Positions 2,450-64,000 of a DNA stretch of 64,000 bases are shown here, piece after piece (the first letter of the stretch is position 1; the number at the start of each line of letters is the position of its first letter). The position numbers and the translations under genes were made by a program. The notes beneath the pieces were generated by a model. The model did not search any database and had not been told where the DNA came from. It was given only the letters and a program-made list of their open reading frames with translations. The stretch lies in assembly GCF_056712565.1 (NCBI RefSeq), contig NZ_CM160072.1. The stretch is one strand, 5' to 3'.

Positions 2450-3577
2450 ATGTCGTGCCCGGTTATTGAGCTGACACAACAGCTTATTCGCCGCCCTTCC
2501 CTGAGTCCTGATGACGCAGGATGCCAGGCTTTGTTGATTGAACGTTTGCAGGCGATCGGTTTTACCGTTGAACGCATGGACTTTGCCGATACGCAGAATT
2601 TTTGGGCATGGCGTGGGCAGGGTGAAACGTTAGCCTTTGCCGGGCATACCGACGTGGTGCCGCCTGGCGACGCCGACCGTTGGATCAATCCGCCGTTTGA
2701 ACCAACCATTCGTGACGGCATGTTATTCGGGCGCGGTGCGGCAGATATGAAAGGCTCGCTGGCGGCGATGGTGGTAGCTGCAGAACGTTTTGTCGCACAA
2801 CATCCCAACCATACGGGGCGACTGGCATTTCTGATCACCTCTGATGAAGAAGCCAGTGCACACAATGGTACGGTAAAAGTCGTCGAAGCGTTAATGGCAC
2901 GTAATGAGCGTCTCGATTACTGCCTGGTTGGCGAACCGTCGAGTATCGAAGTGGTAGGTGATGTGGTGAAAAATGGTCGTCGCGGATCGTTAACCTGCAA
3001 CCTTACCATTCATGGCGTTCAGGGGCATGTTGCCTACCCACATCTGGCTGACAATCCGGTACATCGCGCAGCACCTTTCATTAATGAATTAGTGGCTATT
3101 GAGTGGGATCAGGGTAATGAATTCTTCCCGGCGACCAGTATGCAGATTGCCAATATTCAGGCGGGAACGGGCAGTAACAACGTTATTCCAGGTGAACTGT
3201 TTGTGCAGTTTAACTTCCGCTTTAGCACCGAACTGACGGATGAGATGATCAAAGCGCAGGTGCTTGCCCTGCTTGAAAAACATCAACTGCGCTATACGGT
3301 GGATTGGTGGCTTTCCGGGCAGCCATTTTTGACCGCGCGCGGTAAACTGGTGGATGCGGTCGTTAACGCGGTTGAGCACTATAATGAAATTAAACCGCAG
3401 CTACTGACCACAGGCGGAACGTCCGACGGGCGCTTTATTGCCCGCATGGGGGCGCAGGTGGTGGAACTCGGGCCGGTCAATGCCACGATTCATAAAATTA
3501 ATGAATGTGTGAACGCTGCCGACCTGCAGCTACTTGCCCGTATGTATCAACGTATCATGGAACAGCTCGTCGCCTGA
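2450..3577 (+). CDS. dapE: Succinyl-diaminopimelate desuccinylase
   Basis: 375-aa ORF, M20 peptidase family motifs, synteny. Confidence 0.95.
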
Positions 3578-26827: not shown

Positions 26828-27346
26828 GTGATGAAATTTAAAAAATGTCTTCTGCCTGTGGCAATGTTAGCGTCATTCACTCTGGCAGGATGCCAGTCAA
26901 ATGCTGATGATCATGCCGCCGATGTTTATCAAACCGATCAACTGAATACCAAACAAGAAACTAAAACCGTTAATATTATTTCCATTCTTCCCGCAAAAGT
27001 TGCCGTAGACAACGCCCAAAATAAACGGAACGCACAAGCCTTCGGCGCGCTTATTGGCGCTGTCGCTGGCGGTGTTATCGGCCACAACGTCGGGTCTGGC
27101 AGCAATTCCGGAACGACGGCAGGTGCAGTTGGCGGCGGAGCTGTAGGCGCGGCAGCGGGTTCTATGGTGAATGATAAAACCTTAGTGGAAGGTGTTTCTT
27201 TAACATATAAGGAAGGCACCAAAGTGTATACCTCCACCCAGGTGGGTAAAGAGTGCCAGTTTACGACAGGTTTAGCCGTTGTTATTACCACGACGTATAA
27301 CGAAACGCGTATTCAGCCAAATACCAAATGTCCTGAAAAGAGCTAA
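26828..27346 (+). CDS. yfgH: Outer membrane lipoprotein YfgH (glycine-zipper)
   Basis: Lipobox LAGC; Gly-rich GxxxG repeats. Confidence 0.85.
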   Translation: MMKFKKCLLPVAMLASFTLAGCQSNADDHAADVYQTDQLNTKQETKTVNIISILPAKVAVDNAQNKRNAQAFGALIGAVAGGVIGHNVGSGSNSGTTAGAVGGGAVGAAAGSMVNDKTLVEGVSLTYKEGTKVYTSTQVGKECQFTTGLAVVITTTYNETRIQPNTKCPEKS

Positions 27347-27361
27347 TAATCAGGAGGAGTC

Positions 27362-27901
27362 ATGAAGAAAGTTTTTCTTTGCGCCATCTTAGCCTCCTTA
27401 AGCTATCCGGCTATCGCCTCATCATTGCAGGATCAACTCTCGGCTGTCGCAGAAGCGGAACAGCAAGGTAAAAATGAAGAGCAAAGGCAGCATGACGAAT
27501 GGGTCGCGGAGCGCAACAGGGAAATCCAGCAAGAGAAGCAACGTCGCGCAAACGCCCAGGCCGCGGCTAATAAAAGAGCGGCAACGGCAGCAGCGAATAA
27601 GAAAGCTCGTCAGGATAAACTGGACGCCGAAGCCACTGCGGACAAAAAACGCGATCAAAGTTATGAAGATGAGCTACGTAGCTTAGAGATTCAGAAACAA
27701 AAACTGGCGCTGGCGAAAGAAGAAGCCCGCGTCAAGCGCGAAAACGAATTTATCGATCAGGAACTGAAGCACAAAGCTGCGCAAACCGATGTGGTGCAAT
27801 CTGAAGCTGACGCAAACAGAAATATGACTGAAGGCGGTCGCGATCTGATGAAAAGCGTGGGTAAAGCAGAAGAGAATAAATCAGATAGCTGGTTTAACTA
27901 A
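27362..27901 (+). CDS. yfgI: Secreted coiled-coil protein YfgI
   Basis: 179 aa, signal peptide, charged coiled-coil. Confidence 0.85.
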   Translation: MKKVFLCAILASLSYPAIASSLQDQLSAVAEAEQQGKNEEQRQHDEWVAERNREIQQEKQRRANAQAAANKRAATAAANKKARQDKLDAEATADKKRDQSYEDELRSLEIQKQKLALAKEEARVKRENEFIDQELKHKAAQTDVVQSEADANRNMTEGGRDLMKSVGKAEENKSDSWFN

Positions 27902-27946
27902 ACGATGTTAGTAACTTCAAACCTATAATTCTTTAGGATAAAAAAA

Positions 27947-27973
27947 CCCTCTGTAGTAACAGAGGGTTTTGTT
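27947..27973. terminator. Bidirectional rho-independent terminator (yfgI / original guaA)
   Basis: A-run, CCCTCTG-tagtaa-CAGAGGG, TTTTGTT. Confidence 0.6.
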
Positions 27974-27994
27974 CATTCATAGTGCAGGGTCAAA

Positions 27995-28009
27995 TCATTC
28001 CCACTCAAT
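27995..28009 (-). other. Displaced guaA 3' end (codons IEWE-stop) = prophage attachment core at junction
   Basis: TCATTCCCACTCAAT reverse-translates to ...I-E-W-E-stop then diverges into phage DNA; 9-bp inverted repeat CACTCAATT/AATTGAGTG at 28002-28038. Confidence 0.55.
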
Positions 28010-28119
28010 TATTTACGATAACCATAACCAATTGAGTGATAACATTTTTCCAAATCTCAATTTTTCCCGTACCGTTTTATATACCGTCACCGGAAATCAG
28101 TACCATGAAAAATGCCATG

Positions 28120-28602
28120 CTATCTGGTCAAAGTGTCGTACTGTTTTTCGCAGACTCTTCCGGCTTCGGCTGCCCGGTCAGCATACTCTGCCAGTTGTCT
28201 GTTTCTCTCGAGAGATTTGCTGAGCACGTCGGCAAGCAAAACTCCGGTGTCTGCGGCTGACGACCCAGCGCCGACAATGGCGTTATACTGCCTGAGCTGC
28301 TCACGGATGGCAAAGAGTTGTTGCTGCAACCGGCCAGCGCTAGCGGCAGCATCAAGAGCATCATTGCGCGCCTGGTCGATCCTCTGCTGAGCTTCACGTT
28401 CATTGGTCACTTTCTCCTGTTCGTAGTACTGACGAACTTTGTCTTCTTCGGCTTTGCGGTCTTCTTCCGCCTGAGCATACCCGGCATCGTACTGGCGACT
28501 GCCGTGTATATTCCAGGCAACCACTCCTGATATGACCAGAACAGCAAGCACTGCCACGATAAGCAACTGTTTCCAGTATGCTTTCACGAATGCCTTGATC
28601 AT
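28120..28602 (-). CDS. Rz-like i-spanin
   Basis: N-terminal TM anchor then charged coiled-coil; last gene of lysis cassette. Confidence 0.6.
   Translation of the reverse strand: MIKAFVKAYWKQLLIVAVLAVLVISGVVAWNIHGSRQYDAGYAQAEEDRKAEEDKVRQYYEQEKVTNEREAQQRIDQARNDALDAAASAGRLQQQLFAIREQLRQYNAIVGAGSSAADTGVLLADVLSKSLERNRQLAEYADRAAEAGRVCEKQYDTLTR
28128..28364 (-). CDS. Rz1-like o-spanin lipoprotein, embedded in Rz in the +1 frame
   Basis: MMLLMLPLALAGCS lipobox; fully nested within Rz. Confidence 0.5.
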   Translation of the reverse strand: MMLLMLPLALAGCSNNSLPSVSSSGSITPLSALGRQPQTPEFCLPTCSANLSRETDNWQSMLTGQPKPEESAKNSTTL

Positions 28603-28823
28603 ATACTTACCTTCGGCTGAAATCGGCGAACGTTAATTGGCTCACCATATGGCCATGACCAATTCAGCCAGGTAAATGTTTTCAGCTCGCACATCGCATC
28701 GAAAAATTCACCAGGATCGATGTCGGAATAGCTGCAAACTATTTCCAGACCACGTTCTGTTTCTTGCAAAGCAACTGTATCTGTTTCCCAGCGGGGAATG
28801 AGCAAAGAAAATAGTTTATTCAT
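28599..28823 (-). CDS. Hypothetical 74-aa protein, translationally coupled to endolysin
   Basis: ATG 28823 overlaps endolysin stop; RBS AGAAGG; no TM. Confidence 0.4.
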
Positions 28824-30416: not shown

Positions 30417-30445
30417 CCCGCAAAATATTGCGGGCTTTTTTTTAA
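30417..30445 (+). terminator. Plus-strand rho-independent terminator abutting tailspike stop
   Basis: CCCGCAAAATATTGCGGG followed by CTTTTTTTTT. Confidence 0.4.
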
Positions 30446-33400
30446 CGTTCTTCCAGAGACTGAATCCGCTCTTTTATCTTATCCATTTCTCTGCGCTGCC
30501 ATGCTGCCTCGATATAGAATAAGAGATCAGGTCTGACCCCCCATCTAGATCCTGCTGGCGTTATTTCAACGCGCTCAATGATGTCTTCTATTACCATCAC
30601 TGGATTATCATCCTCATCAACAATGATGCTCCCGTCATTATCAGTCAGCGGCATTTCCCTTTGGCCAGTAATGACGTCATCATATACTGCGGGATAATCG
30701 TCATAGCAAAGAAAGGCATAGCGGCATGTTGTGCTTTCTTCTTCCATGAGTCCGTGAGAAATAAGAACATCACGAAGTTGCTGCGCGATTACACCATGAT
30801 GTATCCTCGCCCCTTCTTCCCCCTTTATAGCGACAGCGTTCAGCCATTTATAAGCGATATACCTGACGTCACCCCAGGCATCCAGCAATGCTTCGTCAGG
30901 AGAGACCGGCTCTGTCTTTAATGTTCCGTCACTGGTAACCACAGGATTGGAGCCAAGATAAACTGTCGAGAACCTGTTTCCCGGACCACCAAGAGCATTT
31001 ACATTATCAAGATAAGGTTTAACATCTCCGTTCTCAAAAAGATGTTCGAGTGCGTTATATACCGCGCGACGTGGAGTACTGCTTCCGGAACCATGCAACG
31101 TTATCATTGCACCATCTGCTGAAGACGTTGTTTCACCTCCGCTAACGATTAATCTCTGAGCGGTAACATCATCAGACGGTACTTTCTTCGCAATAATGGC
31201 GTAATTACCCTCAAGTTTGACTTCCGCGCGAACTTGTCCTGATGTACCTGCATGGACAGTCAGTGACTGGACGGCAACATCATCTGTGAAATCAACGGGT
31301 ACAGGAACCGTCCTCACGCCTGACGTCGACATAAAAGTAGGAAGCGTTCTGTTAGGAGTGGCTCCGTAGACAAAATCCCTTGAAACAAATTCTTCCTGTT
31401 TAATTTTCACCCTGAAACAATACAAATCAGCCGGGTGACCATCGTGAACATAAGGATATTTTCTGTTGTTATCCCCTATGCTCCATGGGTTTAGAAAGTC
31501 TTCCCCACCGAAAATGTAGTACAGCCAGTTGTCTTTGATACAAACTGAACCAACACCAACCGCAGAGTTAACTATTCCGCCCTGATAAATCTGATCAGTA
31601 ACATTAACCCACTCTACATTATCCAGACTCCACTCATTGACGTTAACTCTGGTCATAAATGTTCTTGGATAATTTCCTGCATAACGGTTATCAGGTTCTC
31701 CTCCTTCCCACTCACCAAATGCGCGCTCACTGCCAAAAATAATCAGCTCATCGCCAACTTTGGCAAAAGGAAGGTTTGAGTGATGAACATTATTTGGGAA
31801 GCGAAGAGAATTCCATGATGTACCTAAATCAGAGCTTCTGTGCAATGAACTACCGGGTTGAGTACTTAATGTCCCCCTGGTCGTCAGATACAGAATGCCA
31901 TCATAATATTTTACACATGGCTCAGATGCATTCGCCTCATATTCTGCAGGTATGCGTCTGCGAACAAAGCTACCAGGAGAACCGAAAGCATCAGAGAAAT
32001 AGAGTATCCCAAGCTCGCGTGGACCAATATCACCATTATGGTAGCCAACAGCAAAACTGTTATCGCTAATCGTCGCAAAACTGTGAATCTCAGTAACAGG
32101 AGTGCTTCCGTCAACAAAAGAAGGAATAGTTCCAAGACTGGTTTTTCTCCATGGTGACGAGTGAAATGATGTACCAAAACTCCAGTATCTACCCTCGTTA
32201 TTCTGATCCACATCCTGAGTATTTTGCGTCGTAACTGTAAAAGTATTTTTATCAATAACAGTAGTCACCGTCATATTCCCGGTAACACCTGTAACACCAG
32301 AGTTTGAGAAGTTGACAAAATCACCAGCAAATAATCCGTGATCAGTAATGCGAATATAAGCGACTTGCTGATTTGCTGCTTTCGTTATACCACCATAAAC
32401 GCGAAGGCTGCGACTCATTGGGCGATCCCACAACTCTGCAACCTGCAGTTTATTTCCTCTCACGGTCCGCGTCTCAATTACAGCAAAAAGGCGATTTCTG
32501 ACAACCCCCATACTCATGCAGTGATAGTTAACTGTGGGATAGTTTTCATGTAAATCTGTAAGCCATTCCGGCGTTGTCCAGGTCTTCCCGTCATCTCCTG
32601 AGCGAACCCATGCAACATGGAGGTTATTTACACCATGGCGGTCTCCAGCCATAAAAGGCGCATAGATGACATTGTCATATACAAACGTTTTATCCTGCGT
32701 CCAGGCGTTGTACCACGGTGTATCTGTAATTTTAAATAACTCTCCCTGGATAAAATCTTCAGAAGCATAAAAAAGAGGCTGGCCCGGTATTCTCTCAAAT
32801 AAAAAACGAGCATTTTTAAATCGACTGACATCCGGAAGAGTTGATACTTTAAAAGTAAGCCCTAATCCGTCAATTTTATAACCTGGAGATGAGGCTTCAA
32901 GGCACGCGCTTATTGCAGTGGAATCGTCATTTATACCATCACCAACAGCTCCAAAATCTTTGGGGCTAATAGCATCACGCATTTTATCCTGGAACGTTCG
33001 GTACACAGCCCCAGAACCATACTGAATAAACCAACCAAAACCACCAACAACCCCGGCGATTGCAGCATCGACATAATTACGCATTGAGCGATTATTTACA
33101 GCGTCCTGCTCAAATGATGGATCTGCAAGGTTAGAAATTTTGTTTTGCTTTGCATCGTAATATTTTGCAAGCAAAGATGGTTTCATCAATGCACGTCTGA
33201 ACCACCCAAAACATTGCTGGATCAGCATCGTCAGGTAGTCAAAGGCATCTTCATGCACTTCGGGGAAAAATTTTCCCTGATTGCGAAGGTCTGTCTCCTG
33301 CACTACATCAAGCACACGATCTATCGTAATTCGCCATCCAGTAGCAAGCGGAGACGGAAGAACCACAGAACCGCCACTATAAGTGCCCGCCCCAGTTACC

Positions 33401-33561
33401 GTATAACCGGTATCCAGGACCAATTCTGTTACGTTCCCGTTCAGGTCAGACACCTGAACAACCAGGTCTGATTTTCTGAAAATTCGAAAAGTATACGGAA
33501 ACGATGTCGTAACGCCGTTACCGGTGTATTCGTTGTGGTCAACTTCGGTTGAGACCGTCAT
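30442..33561 (-). CDS. Tailspike protein with Asp-box (BNR) beta-propeller-type central domain
   Basis: 1039 aa; conserved phage tail-fibre N-terminal domain; two SxDxGxTW motifs (SGDDGKTW, SSDLGTSW); RBS GGAG. Confidence 0.8.
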   Translation of the reverse strand: MTVSTEVDHNEYTGNGVTTSFPYTFRIFRKSDLVVQVSDLNGNVTELVLDTGYTVTGAGTYSGGSVVLPSPLATGWRITIDRVLDVVQETDLRNQGKFFPEVHEDAFDYLTMLIQQCFGWFRRALMKPSLLAKYYDAKQNKISNLADPSFEQDAVNNRSMRNYVDAAIAGVVGGFGWFIQYGSGAVYRTFQDKMRDAISPKDFGAVGDGINDDSTAISACLEASSPGYKIDGLGLTFKVSTLPDVSRFKNARFLFERIPGQPLFYASEDFIQGELFKITDTPWYNAWTQDKTFVYDNVIYAPFMAGDRHGVNNLHVAWVRSGDDGKTWTTPEWLTDLHENYPTVNYHCMSMGVVRNRLFAVIETRTVRGNKLQVAELWDRPMSRSLRVYGGITKAANQQVAYIRITDHGLFAGDFVNFSNSGVTGVTGNMTVTTVIDKNTFTVTTQNTQDVDQNNEGRYWSFGTSFHSSPWRKTSLGTIPSFVDGSTPVTEIHSFATISDNSFAVGYHNGDIGPRELGILYFSDAFGSPGSFVRRRIPAEYEANASEPCVKYYDGILYLTTRGTLSTQPGSSLHRSSDLGTSWNSLRFPNNVHHSNLPFAKVGDELIIFGSERAFGEWEGGEPDNRYAGNYPRTFMTRVNVNEWSLDNVEWVNVTDQIYQGGIVNSAVGVGSVCIKDNWLYYIFGGEDFLNPWSIGDNNRKYPYVHDGHPADLYCFRVKIKQEEFVSRDFVYGATPNRTLPTFMSTSGVRTVPVPVDFTDDVAVQSLTVHAGTSGQVRAEVKLEGNYAIIAKKVPSDDVTAQRLIVSGGETTSSADGAMITLHGSGSSTPRRAVYNALEHLFENGDVKPYLDNVNALGGPGNRFSTVYLGSNPVVTSDGTLKTEPVSPDEALLDAWGDVRYIAYKWLNAVAIKGEEGARIHHGVIAQQLRDVLISHGLMEEESTTCRYAFLCYDDYPAVYDDVITGQREMPLTDNDGSIIVDEDDNPVMVIEDIIERVEITPAGSRWGVRPDLLFYIEAAWQRREMDKIKERIQSLEER

Positions 33562-34060: not shown

Positions 34061-34326
34061 ATTTACATCGCACTCCTCTTGTGCCATAGTAATCGGGCAC
34101 TGGCAAAATCCAGTGCCGGGATTGGCGTCCCGAGTTACTACAGAGGCACATATGCCGCATAAGCGGTTTTTTTATGTGTAAAGCGCACCTATTCTATGGT
34201 GGGCTGTGTGGGGGCACCGAAAGGTGCGCCGGGTCCTTTGTAGCCGGTTACGCCAACCCTGCACAGTTCACCACCAACCGATTGGCGTCGGTAGTGGTGA
34301 TTAACCTAACTACAAAGGTGATCGCC

Positions 34327-35019
34327 ATGAATACCAAACCTTCCATCTTTTCCTTTGAGTCATCCTGCCAGATCCGTATGTTCATGATTGACGGAGAACC
34401 TTGGTTTGTCACCAAAGATGTGTGCAATGCTTTGAATATTGATGTTACACAAGCGAGAAAACTTGATAAAAAAGGCTGGAACAAAAAGGGGCTGTATTCA
34501 ATACAGACCCCTGGTGGAATACAAGAACTATCCATCGTTTCAGAATCAGGTCTCTACATCCTTATTCTGCGTTGCAAAGAGGCAATGACTGAGGGAACGA
34601 GAGCATTCAGATTTCTTGAATGGGTTACAGGCGAAGTACTTCCTCAGATCCGCCGCACCGGAAGCTACATTAAAAACTCGCTCCCGCAGGAAGAACGCAT
34701 AAAGATGGTTGCCGACCAGGTAGCCAACGCCACGGCGTCAGCAGTAATGCAGGCGATGAAGATAGAGAACAAAACCTACAGCGCCCCACTGAAGCCCGGC
34801 TACCGCAGCCTGATTCATTCGCCGTCTGGTGTTCTCGGCCTGACGGAGAACTCACTGCTGATGAATCTGCTGAACCAGTTACAGGAAGACGGGCACGACG
34901 TATCGGGCGCGGCGGCGGAGCTGACCACCATGTTCTGCTACATCGTCGGTGTGAGCAAGTGCCTGCGTGATATCCAGACGCACGCGGAGTACATCAACGA
35001 CAAGGCTGGGTTCTTCTGA
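34327..35019 (+). CDS. Antirepressor, BRO-N N-terminal domain plus Ant-type C-terminal domain
   Basis: GEPWFVTKDVCNALNI...GLYILILRCKEA...EWVTGEVLPQIRRTG BRO-N signature; ATG 34327 with RBS AAGGTG. Confidence 0.75.
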   Translation: MNTKPSIFSFESSCQIRMFMIDGEPWFVTKDVCNALNIDVTQARKLDKKGWNKKGLYSIQTPGGIQELSIVSESGLYILILRCKEAMTEGTRAFRFLEWVTGEVLPQIRRTGSYIKNSLPQEERIKMVADQVANATASAVMQAMKIENKTYSAPLKPGYRSLIHSPSGVLGLTENSLLMNLLNQLQEDGHDVSGAAAELTTMFCYIVGVSKCLRDIQTHAEYINDKAGFF

Positions 35020-44530: not shown

Positions 44531-47001
44531 CAGAATCCCCCAACAGTAAGGCGAGGAATAACGGCAAGAACAGACAGCGGCAACGGATCAAGCTGACGGA
44601 TTTTTACACGTCCGTTTTTGCCCCAGTTACTGTCCAGTTTCACTTCTACTTTTCCGGTAGCATCATCAACAGGATCATCGTAGAACTCGAATTCACGCTG
44701 TGGATATTCGTACCATTTACCGCCGGGCGTAGTCGCCCAGATGCCGCGACTGGCATTCACAACCAGAGTAACGGACGGGATCACCTGTTTTTTGTCCAGC
44801 AGCGTTTCCTGTCCGTTAATGTTGATATCCAGTGTTTCGAATTCAGCAGTTATTGGCAGGCCGATGTGCACAACAGCCCCAGGTGATTCCAGCGTGACGG
44901 CACCTCCGGAAACCACTTTCTGTGGTTCCACGTTCGCATCAGAGAGGATGTTTACGGTCTGGCCTTCAAGATGAGACAAGCCGCCAAATGTCCGGCGCGC
45001 CATCTGCCAGTTCGTGGTGGCCACATTCCTGAGGGATGGCGGGACGTTCCTGTTAGCACGAACCACTACAGCGGTATTGCTGGTTACAGAAATAATGTCG
45101 CAACGTAATTCTTTTGACACCTCATCGCCAGTATCAGGATCAGTTCCGGTATAAGGGAACTGTAGTTGCGCGCCGACATCACTACTGGTGAAGTACGCAC
45201 CACCAGAAACACTGATTGTATATTCCGCGCGGTAATCCCATTCGCCAGAACCACCAGTGATGGTCATCGTTCTGTCAGACGTATTTCTTCCATCATAGCT
45301 AAGGCCAGAATCAACAAAGAAAGCATCTTCATCGCTGGTAAATAAACGGCTGGACAGTCGCTCGATGTATCTCACTGTTTGCCCGTTAACGGTTCGGTTA
45401 ATGACGAAATACACCGCATCTTCATTGCCTTCGCTGATACTGCATGTGCTTTCATATTTTCCGGTACTGGACTGTGGTGCCCATGCAAAAACCTGTTGAT
45501 CACGCAAATAGGTCATCACCAGTAATTTACCGTCATCACGAATGCAGAAGGCGCTGGAGTAAGGGACTATCGAGAAGCACCAGTCAACAATGCTGTGCTT
45601 CTGAAAAAGATGATTGGCAAGGATGGTCAGGTCGTTCCCCTGATAGCCGTCAACATCGAATGAGTAGGCCAGATCACGGACAACGCTGCCTTTCTCCTGG
45701 ACGAACAGAGCAATATTCGCCACGGCAATTGGCGGGACGTTGCTTGAGCCATTTGATCCCTGAGAGCTGAATGCAAATGATGATGGGGTTAACACTTTGT
45801 TCTGGTCGCCGGTGATGACGTACTCACCTCCGGAAGTCAGCGCCACCAGCGAACCGACATCAATCAGGTGGCGGATCTCATTAACCTGACGCCCGGCATA
45901 GGTGTAGATAATTCTGTCGTCATCCTGCGTAGGATTGCTTTTGCCAAAATCCTTATAATCCCCGGTACGGCTGGCCCAGATAGTCTGAGGAAACGCAGTC
46001 GATGCGGCGAAGTAAAGACGTTGTTGATAATAAACAACAGTGCCAGGATAACCATTAACACTGTTCCAGGCATATTTAGCCCATTTATAGCTGGCATTAT
46101 CCTCGCCAACTACCTGCGAAGGGATATAGGAAATCACCTCGGCAGTTGCAGTAGTTCCATTTGCAGCAGAGATACGGGCAATGCCAAAACCACTGTGCAG
46201 ATACTCCCACTCAATGCCGGTATCATCATCACCGGATCCGCCCCAGCCATCCCATGATGTGCCTTCTGTATGCGAAGGGCGCAAAGTGCCTGTTTTGCCT
46301 ACTGTAACGGCGCGATAGTAGTTACTGTCTGCACGGCGAATATCGCCAATTGACGTACTCTTACTGGTTTCCCATACCGGCACAGAATCCACTGCAGGCT
46401 GTTCCAGATAGAACAATTTGCCTACCTGCTCCGCGCCAAAAATAGAGGCGCTTGCCGTTAACGTAATTGTCCCGGTGCTGGCGCTGGCATAAACCGTCAC
46501 TGACTCGTCAATATTGATATCTTCAAATGGTCCGTTCTTCGTTACCACATCAACCAGTTGCCAGTTGTCATGCGCATAGCGACGCAACTCTTTCGGCGGG
46601 TATGCCGGATGAACAAGCGTAAGCACGTCGGCGCTTTGCGTGAATTTAATTCGGAACAGATCGGCTTCAGTATATGGCGTGGAAATTTCATAAATAACAT
46701 TGCTGCTGTTCAGCACCAACGCACCATCTTTGATAACGCGCATGTACTGGTGTCCGAACTCCAGAGCATAAGTCTGAACCGTCGAGAACTGGAACGGGAT
46801 CAGGCGGCATTTCCGATTTGGGTATTTGGCGGCACCGACAAAACGCGTACCAGGTCGATTCTCAACTCCGCCATACTGCCGCACGATAAAGTTATCGCAC
46901 TTGCGCAATGCCACCTGGTACTTCGCCATGTCAATACGACCGTACAACGACGGTCCAATCTCACCACCGGCAAAGCTGGGCTGGATCCAACTGATAGCCA
47001 T
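44530..47001 (-). CDS. Tail tube/nozzle-like structural protein (823 aa)
   Basis: Large beta-rich protein after head-completion genes. Confidence 0.55.
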   Translation of the reverse strand: MAISWIQPSFAGGEIGPSLYGRIDMAKYQVALRKCDNFIVRQYGGVENRPGTRFVGAAKYPNRKCRLIPFQFSTVQTYALEFGHQYMRVIKDGALVLNSSNVIYEISTPYTEADLFRIKFTQSADVLTLVHPAYPPKELRRYAHDNWQLVDVVTKNGPFEDINIDESVTVYASASTGTITLTASASIFGAEQVGKLFYLEQPAVDSVPVWETSKSTSIGDIRRADSNYYRAVTVGKTGTLRPSHTEGTSWDGWGGSGDDDTGIEWEYLHSGFGIARISAANGTTATAEVISYIPSQVVGEDNASYKWAKYAWNSVNGYPGTVVYYQQRLYFAASTAFPQTIWASRTGDYKDFGKSNPTQDDDRIIYTYAGRQVNEIRHLIDVGSLVALTSGGEYVITGDQNKVLTPSSFAFSSQGSNGSSNVPPIAVANIALFVQEKGSVVRDLAYSFDVDGYQGNDLTILANHLFQKHSIVDWCFSIVPYSSAFCIRDDGKLLVMTYLRDQQVFAWAPQSSTGKYESTCSISEGNEDAVYFVINRTVNGQTVRYIERLSSRLFTSDEDAFFVDSGLSYDGRNTSDRTMTITGGSGEWDYRAEYTISVSGGAYFTSSDVGAQLQFPYTGTDPDTGDEVSKELRCDIISVTSNTAVVVRANRNVPPSLRNVATTNWQMARRTFGGLSHLEGQTVNILSDANVEPQKVVSGGAVTLESPGAVVHIGLPITAEFETLDININGQETLLDKKQVIPSVTLVVNASRGIWATTPGGKWYEYPQREFEFYDDPVDDATGKVEVKLDSNWGKNGRVKIRQLDPLPLSVLAVIPRLTVGGF

Positions 47002-52816: not shown

Positions 52817-52893
52817 GTGGCATTAGCTCAGTTGGACAGAGCAACCGCCTTCTAAGCGGTTGGTCGCAGGTTCGAATCCTGCATGCCACGCCA
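52817..52893 (+). tRNA. Phage-encoded tRNA-Arg, anticodon UCU
   Basis: Cloverleaf by hand: acceptor GTGGCAT/ATGCCAC, D-arm GCTC/GAGC, anticodon stem ACCGC/GCGGT, loop CTTCTAA, T-arm GCAGG-TTCGAAT-CCTGC, CCA end. Confidence 0.85.
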
Positions 52894-63957: not shown

Positions 63958-64000
63958 ATGAAAGGTGCATTAGGTAAGAAGGAACTCCTGGCGGTGGTGC
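63958..64000 (+). CDS. Start of next early gene (truncated by window end)
   Basis: ATG 63958 (MKGALGKKELLAVV) with RBS AGAGAGG. Confidence 0.3.
   Translation, partial: MKGALGKKELLAVV

Follow-up and report, generated by a model that had tools for sequence, protein, structure and literature searches.

Anatomy of a Uetakevirus-type attachment junction at the guaA tail and of its 9-bp inverted repeat

The attachment site of phage lambda is built around a C-O-C′ core, with the H′ site, at which IHF bends the DNA, lying between this core and the arm sites P′1-P′3. In lambda-type systems the core-type integrase sites flank an overlap of 6-8 bp, and this overlap must fall inside the segment of identity between attP and attB. 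The Uetakevirus phages vB_EcoP_ZX5, phiV10 and epsilon15 use an identical 17-bp core at the same target, the tail of guaA on its yfgI side, and their reported core is ATTGAGTGGGAATGATT (PMC9782041). For ZX5, whose host is K1, attB, attL and attR were PCR-amplified and Sanger-sequenced, and integration and excision at the guaA site were shown experimentally (PMC9782041). The guaA 3′ end is also the target of GIsul2 and other islands and integrative and conjugative elements (ICEs), which are different mobile elements with different cargo. We found no study in the literature on the intasome biochemistry of this integrase family.

Here we describe a junction of this already published type, an epsilon15/phiV10/ZX5-type prophage inserted in the last codons of guaA, in a 64,000-nt stretch of DNA (the window). 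The window and the Uetakevirus phages have in common the gene order Rz-like/attP/terminator/int and show no substantial difference at the junction; outside it, the prophage is mosaic.

The junction and its prophage

Left of the junction lie pdeF, yfgG, yfgH and yfgI, followed by a hairpin terminator, an arrangement as in E. coli K-12. The last chromosomal gene is yfgI (DUF5384; 27362-27901, + strand), as judged from the RefSeq annotation of near-identical genomes and from the K-12 order yfgH-yfgI-guaA. The hairpin (27940-27973) is chromosomal, has 15-nt arms that are 93% complementary, is near-identical in K-12 and serves the convergent yfgI and guaA alike; a terminator scan called a terminator-like site here at 27970-27943 on the − strand. 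In the lysogen, an orphan guaA tail and the lysis operon of the phage now precede this terminator. A promoter scan of 27300-28700 returned no promoter, and an Rfam search gave no match at the junction site.

Direct reading of 27700-28300 places the orphan tail at 27995-28009. The sequence, tcattcccactcaat, is the reverse complement of ATT GAG TGG GAA TGA (I-E-W-E-stop), the same 15 nt with which K-12 guaA ends. The initial annotation described this tail as the last five guaA codons; its position stands, and it comprises four sense codons plus the stop rather than five sense codons. In alignments, the window sequence coincides with K-12 attB as far as 28009 and, from 27993 onward, with ZX5 attP, and its phage arm right of the core is identical to that of ZX5 at 115 of 116 positions. 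K-12 has the core once, with guaA coding sequence directly after it (cccactcaatGGTAGCTGGCGG). Because the K-12 core runs straight into guaA, the prophage must lie right of 28009 and the tail at the window junction is an orphaned chromosomal copy, confirming the reading of an orphan guaA tail at a prophage/chromosome junction. Junctions of this type occur in 359 of 5426 complete E. coli genomes and make up 77 of the 127 core occurrences tallied over the loci examined, most of them from IMG/VR. The identity of the junction and its core as the Uetakevirus guaA attachment site is close to certain, and the region 27941-28043 is very probably the integrase-distal (lysis-gene-side) attachment junction of a Uetakevirus-type prophage.

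The prophage spans about 40.7 kb and extends past base 64000 of the window. In all likelihood it is a temperate podovirus of the epsilon15/phiV10/ZX5 group (genus Uetakevirus) equipped with an endosialidase tailspike for the K1 capsule. BLAST alignments of the lysis-side DNA to free Uetakevirus genomes start at window position 27992/27993 and give identities of 99.2% (ZX5), 90.5% (phiV10) and 87% (epsilon15). The genes right of the junction are all on the − strand. The first prophage gene, which closes the lysis cassette, encodes an Rz-like spanin (DUF2514; 28120-28602; Pfam PF10721, E = 4.9e-44); further genes are those for a GH19 endolysin, for two holins and for an endosialidase tailspike of 1039 aa in which a domain search identified a C-terminal chaperone domain (30442-33561). 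By its endosialidase tailspike on an epsilon15-type backbone, the prophage is marked as having specificity for the polysialic-acid capsule K1, like ZX5, which has a K1-type host and an endosialidase tailspike. Sequenced phages cover 85-87% of the prophage, which elsewhere is mosaic relative to them; the closest of the 5426 complete E. coli genomes reaches 94% coverage at 98.3% identity.

Several other features of the prophage were recorded. The open reading frames from holin to spanin are arranged otherwise in the window than in the reference lysogen. Rfam models for isrK (74 bits) and C4 antisense RNA (79.5 bits) match at 34097-34278 (+ strand), immediately before a 281-aa open reading frame (34174-35019) and reaching into its beginning. 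The counterpart of this reading frame in a related lysogen is annotated as an antirepressor; together, these look like an antisense immunity module of the P1/P7 type. The prophage also carries a tRNA-Arg with anticodon TCT (52817-52893, + strand).

The att core and the crossover zone

The att core occupies 27993-28009 and reads AATCATTCCCACTCAAT, the exact reverse complement of the published core; on the − strand, 27995-28009 of it is the orphan guaA tail. The initial annotation held that the tail defines the core precisely. The core does lie at the guaA tail, and alignment to K-12 attB and to ZX5/phiV10 attP extends it to 17 bp common to phage and host, two bases beyond the 15 annotated. The idea that uninfected strains already carry the junction sequence is true of the native part only (27941-28009): K-12 has one core and no second repeat arm, and the phage arm is absent there.

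A search of the 64,000-nt window for a second core copy with up to two mismatches found none, since the prophage runs past base 64000. The same core had been predicted at the guaA-proximal junction, and this is what we see in relatives. In the near-identical lysogen NZ_CP126940.1, the phage terminator and int precede a guaA-side junction of the form ...GAGTTAGCTGTT-AATCATTCCCACTCAAT-AGTTGCTGGTGG(guaA), or ...GCTGTT-AATCATTCCCACTCAAT-AGTTGCTGG(guaA) in a shorter reading, and the same junction occurs in 12 IMG/VR prophage loci and one Klebsiella lysogen; the window's own guaA-proximal end lies beyond base 64000. At this far end, the core copy brought in by the phage would complete guaA, with the phage-borne terminator and int after it.

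The 12 bp of guaA adjoining the core, that is, the codons just upstream of it, differ by three synonymous changes between the lysogen (AGTTGCTGGTGG; L002 5590-5601) and K-12 (GGTAGCTGGCGG; L003 3974-3985). The base next to the core is the wobble position of a Thr codon and is A, G or C among hosts, and this variation sets the right-hand limit of the identity segment. The terminator on the integrase-side arm, AAAAACCCTCTGTAAAAACAGAGGGTT, has 25 of 27 positions in common with the host guaA/yfgI terminator (L002 5655-5690, reverse strand, and L005 1724-1756, compared with window 27940-27973), so that guaA receives a replacement tail together with a look-alike terminator upon integration. A similar terminator lies downstream of guaA in Klebsiella. 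The near-copy suggests an origin of attP by capture from the 3′ region of a bacterial guaA.

The Klebsiella lysogen MK422448.1 narrows the site of strand exchange. Its host-side junction reads GGGGATTACTCCCACTCAAT+TATTTAC (GATTACTCCCACTCAAT) and keeps the native Klebsiella tail GAG TAA, and its guaA-side junction reads GCCGTTAATCATTCCCACTCAAT+CGTTGC (core AATCATTCCCACTCAAT) and carries the phage tail GAA TGA. Core positions 1-6 are accordingly GATTAC on the host side and AATCAT on the guaA side: attP and attB differ in Klebsiella at three core positions (1, 4 and 6), with the parental bases retained at all of them in both junctions. Crossover thus falls within TCCCACTCAAT, and by these sequence comparisons it is bounded to the 11 bp at 27999-28009. 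In the same tail of guaA, the recombination core of GIsul2 is GAGTGGGA (PMC9376610), which corresponds to window 27999-28006, inside the 11-bp zone.

Strand exchange inside this zone would most likely involve the 7-bp overlap CCCACTC (28000-28006), a candidate for the exact overlap, flanked by ATT/AAT-based core-type half-sites. The candidate half-sites in attP are TTAATCATT and AATTATTTA, which form an imperfect inverted pair: AATTATTTA agrees with the reverse complement of TTAATCATT at seven of nine positions. A viral scan with the core variant ...CTCGAT, intended to bound the crossover from the right, recovered further elements integrated at guaA along with unrelated fortuitous hits, none of which supplied an attP/attB mismatch pair that would be informative.

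The window holds TCCCACTCAAT exactly twice more, at 3098-3108 (− strand) and 46205-46215 (+ strand), against 0.04 expected. In each case the 11-mer is read in frame as I-E-W-E/D, once within an M20 peptidase gene and once within the gene for an 823-aa prophage protein; in the prophage gene the match widens to TACTCCCACTCAAT, which is also the sequence of the Klebsiella attB tail. The flanks of these copies lack similarity to att, and we rejected them as att-related; they are probably due to chance.

The inverted repeat and the conserved phage arm

The annotated 9-bp inverted repeat is exact on direct reading. Its left arm, CACTCAATT (28002-28010, + strand), spans 8 nt of core and, at its right end, the first base that is phage-only, and it is perfectly complementary to AATTGAGTG (28030-28038), 19 nt away. 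In a repeat search the arms lengthen to 14 nt (28002-28015 and 28025-28038, with a 9-nt loop) and are then 86% complementary. Perfect inverted repeats with 9-nt arms and a loop of at most 30 nt number 18 in the window, counted as distinct repeats, against about 6.7 in simulated sequence, and they touch only 1.2% of 17-bp segments. The repeat is therefore real, and its chance occurrence here is modestly unlikely on an estimate made post hoc.

The left arm is fixed by guaA, which precludes a classical covariation test. We instead used the one-sided variation of the phage arm, scoring conservation over 75 unique arms. The bases adjoining the core, TATTTACG (28010-28017), are conserved in at least 71 of the 75 arms at every position, and the TATT..AC of this block is also found in distant guaA-integrating elements; the block may be a core-type, C′-like integrase half-site. 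The next five nucleotides (28018-28022) are hypervariable, with three to four bases at each position and none present in more than 51 of the 75 arms, in sharp contrast with the blocks on either side, and we read them as an unconstrained spacer. They are followed by a second conserved block, CATAACCAATTGAGTGATAACA (28023-28044, − strand), which contains the right repeat arm.

This second block also contains a motif, ACTCAATTGGTTA (28025-28037, − strand), that agrees with the IHF consensus WATCAANNNNTTR at 12 of 13 positions. Three stretches are invariant in all 75 arms: TAA (28025-28027), AATTGA (28030-28035) and T (28037). Read on the − strand, the invariant bases spell A-N-TCAA-N4-TTA, which is the IHF consensus with position 2 alone left free. 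That position is base 28036, the sole base to vary freely among the arms and also the one at which the window motif deviates from the consensus. Matches to the consensus with at most one mismatch occur once per 1185 bp across the window, compared with three within 28003-28041. Moreover, distant and otherwise unalignable arms from about ten lineages carry a match at the same offset of 16, with no mismatch (L092, L107, L132, L134 and L141), one (L004, L104, L131 and L143) or two (L133 and L137). A T-tract at 28045-28049, an A-tract on the − strand, lies 7 nt upstream of the motif, with T at 28047-28049 in at least 71 of the 75 arms; it may parallel the A-tract of the lambda H′ site. The epsilon15 GenBank record, AY150271, predicts IHF sites at equivalent positions.

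Seven of the distant elements (L131-L134, L137, L141 and L143), all from IMG/VR, are mobile elements at guaA tails ending in ...CTCGAT (with an Ile ATC codon). Their arms start with TATT..AC and have the IHF-consensus match at the same offset, features they have in common with the window arm, and they point to a wider family of guaA-targeting integrases with what would be a common attP layout.

We give a predicted IHF-type role of the block at 28023-28044 an even chance. By the same conservation pattern, the right repeat arm is more likely part of an IHF-like DNA-bending site than a core-binding partner. In such an arrangement, the right arm would reside in the conserved block together with the IHF-type motif (28025-28037), and its complementarity to the core would follow from the guaA tail happening to hold an ACTCAA-N4-TTA-like string in the opposite orientation.

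The complementarity itself may then have no function, being a chance by-product of a phage-arm site that resembles a string in the guaA tail. This is a real though lesser possibility, and it is compatible with, and largely contained in, the explanation we prefer. The left arm is set by guaA coding sequence, complementarity decays in relatives to 3-7 of nine positions in distant lineages, and about seven such repeats are expected per window; against this stands the small share of 17-mers that such repeats touch. The statistically unusual fold of the repeat (z = −3.55) likewise leaves some chance that the symmetry plays a part.

A different accessory protein might also bind 28023-28044, either a phage excisionase (RDF) or integrase itself at an extra, bridging core-type site, in which case the inverted symmetry with the core would mirror the recognition sequence of that protein. 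A CAATTG palindrome lies in the conserved block, together with two direct copies of ATAAC spaced by 15 bp, so it could bind another protein; a gene of the HTH/AlpA family is annotated near int in relatives, and AATTGA resembles the inferred half-sites AATGAT and AATTAT. A second register, TATCACTCAATTG (28029-28041), fits the IHF consensus equally well by mismatch count. The distant elements, however, keep only the IHF-consensus positions and neither the palindrome nor the ATAAC repeats, and their accessory proteins differ, IHF being a host factor common to them. We consider binding by another protein unlikely.

More doubtful still is that the two IHF-like motifs, at 28003-28015 (+ strand) and 28025-28037 (− strand), form a directionality or regulatory device. 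The inverted pair is found only in attP and the window junction, being absent from attB and from the guaA-side junction, and one of its members overlaps the crossover zone. A host bending protein could, on such a reading, compete with integrase on the core itself or position it there.

The initial annotation had proposed that the repeat is a likely integrase core-binding arrangement; strand exchange would then occur between two inverted core-type sites. In favor of this, an exact repeat that reaches into the core is not readily expected here by chance, and its right arm lies in a conserved block. Its geometry nevertheless does not suit a tyrosine recombinase: the arms are 19 bp apart, far more than the 6-8-bp overlap, or 9 bp apart when extended imperfectly. 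The center of the repeat, near 28020, falls 10 bp outside the attP/attB identity (27993-28009) and outside the crossover zone to which the Klebsiella junctions hold the exchange, and the right arm is phage-only, for K-12 attB continues as guaA coding sequence with no such arm. Nor is pairing maintained in relatives. Position 28036, the partner of core base 28004, varies freely among the 75 unique arms (G in 47, C in 24, T in three and A in one) next to invariant neighbors, and the relative L139 has the left arm CACTCGATT with AATTGAGTG unchanged and so uncompensated. We are confident that the 9-bp repeat is not a crossover-flanking pair, and the proposal of inverted core-type sites retains very little probability.

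Least probable of all is a nucleic-acid structure, whether a cruciform in the DNA or a hairpin in the RNA that terminates the − strand lysis transcript: although a DNA fold of −6.3 kcal/mol (z = −3.55) is predicted for the 61-nt stretch and the repeat lies just downstream of the Rz-like stop codon, its stem is AT-rich with a 19-nt loop and without the G+C-rich stem and T-run of a Rho-independent terminator, the terminator scan called only the 27943-27970 hairpin, a strong terminator stands on either side of the core in prophage and phage contexts alike, and the arms show no compensatory changes, with a mid-stem mismatch in at least 28 of the 75.

Comparison with lambda and implications

Beyond the IHF-like motif lie two candidate arm-type integrase sites on the + strand, GTACCGTTTT (28069-28078) and ATACCGTCAC (28081-28090), conserved at 90% or more; the stretch TACCGTTTTATATACCGTCACCG (about 28070-28092) is conserved across phage arms. 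The 10-mer ATACCGTCAC recurs on the integrase-side arm at −142 and, inverted, at −171, and the motif ATACCGTCA is present on both phage arms. In the epsilon15 record AY150271, the equivalent of 28081-28090 is marked as integrase binding, which is a prediction. The tyrosine integrase in NZ_CP126940.1 has the domains Arm-DNA-bind_3, Phage_int_M and Phage_integrase. An integrase of this kind would be expected to use arm-type sites in addition to the core, here at 28081-28090 and at the partial copy at 28069-28078.

These features resemble lambda attP in three respects: an integrase with an arm-binding N-terminal domain, repeated arm-type motifs 65-170 bp from the core on both arms, and an IHF-consensus motif between the core and the arm sites, all of the sites here being predicted. 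The succession of core, IHF-like site and arm-type sites presumably parallels the lambda P′ arm. The core sequence, the target and the arm motifs are unrelated to those of lambda, and the 17-bp identity segment is as long as it is here because it restores the end of a gene.

Our analysis fixes one prophage boundary in the window at 27993-28009, at a well-known hot spot for integration in guaA, and identifies the element as a K1-specific prophage of the ZX5/phiV10/epsilon15 type, which is of little import beyond annotation. It also yields testable predictions for the intasome of this family, namely an 11-bp crossover zone delimited by a natural mismatch in Klebsiella, a position-conserved motif of the IHF type, and arm sites of the ATACCGTCAC type. 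The results thereby refine a known kind of system rather than describe a new one.
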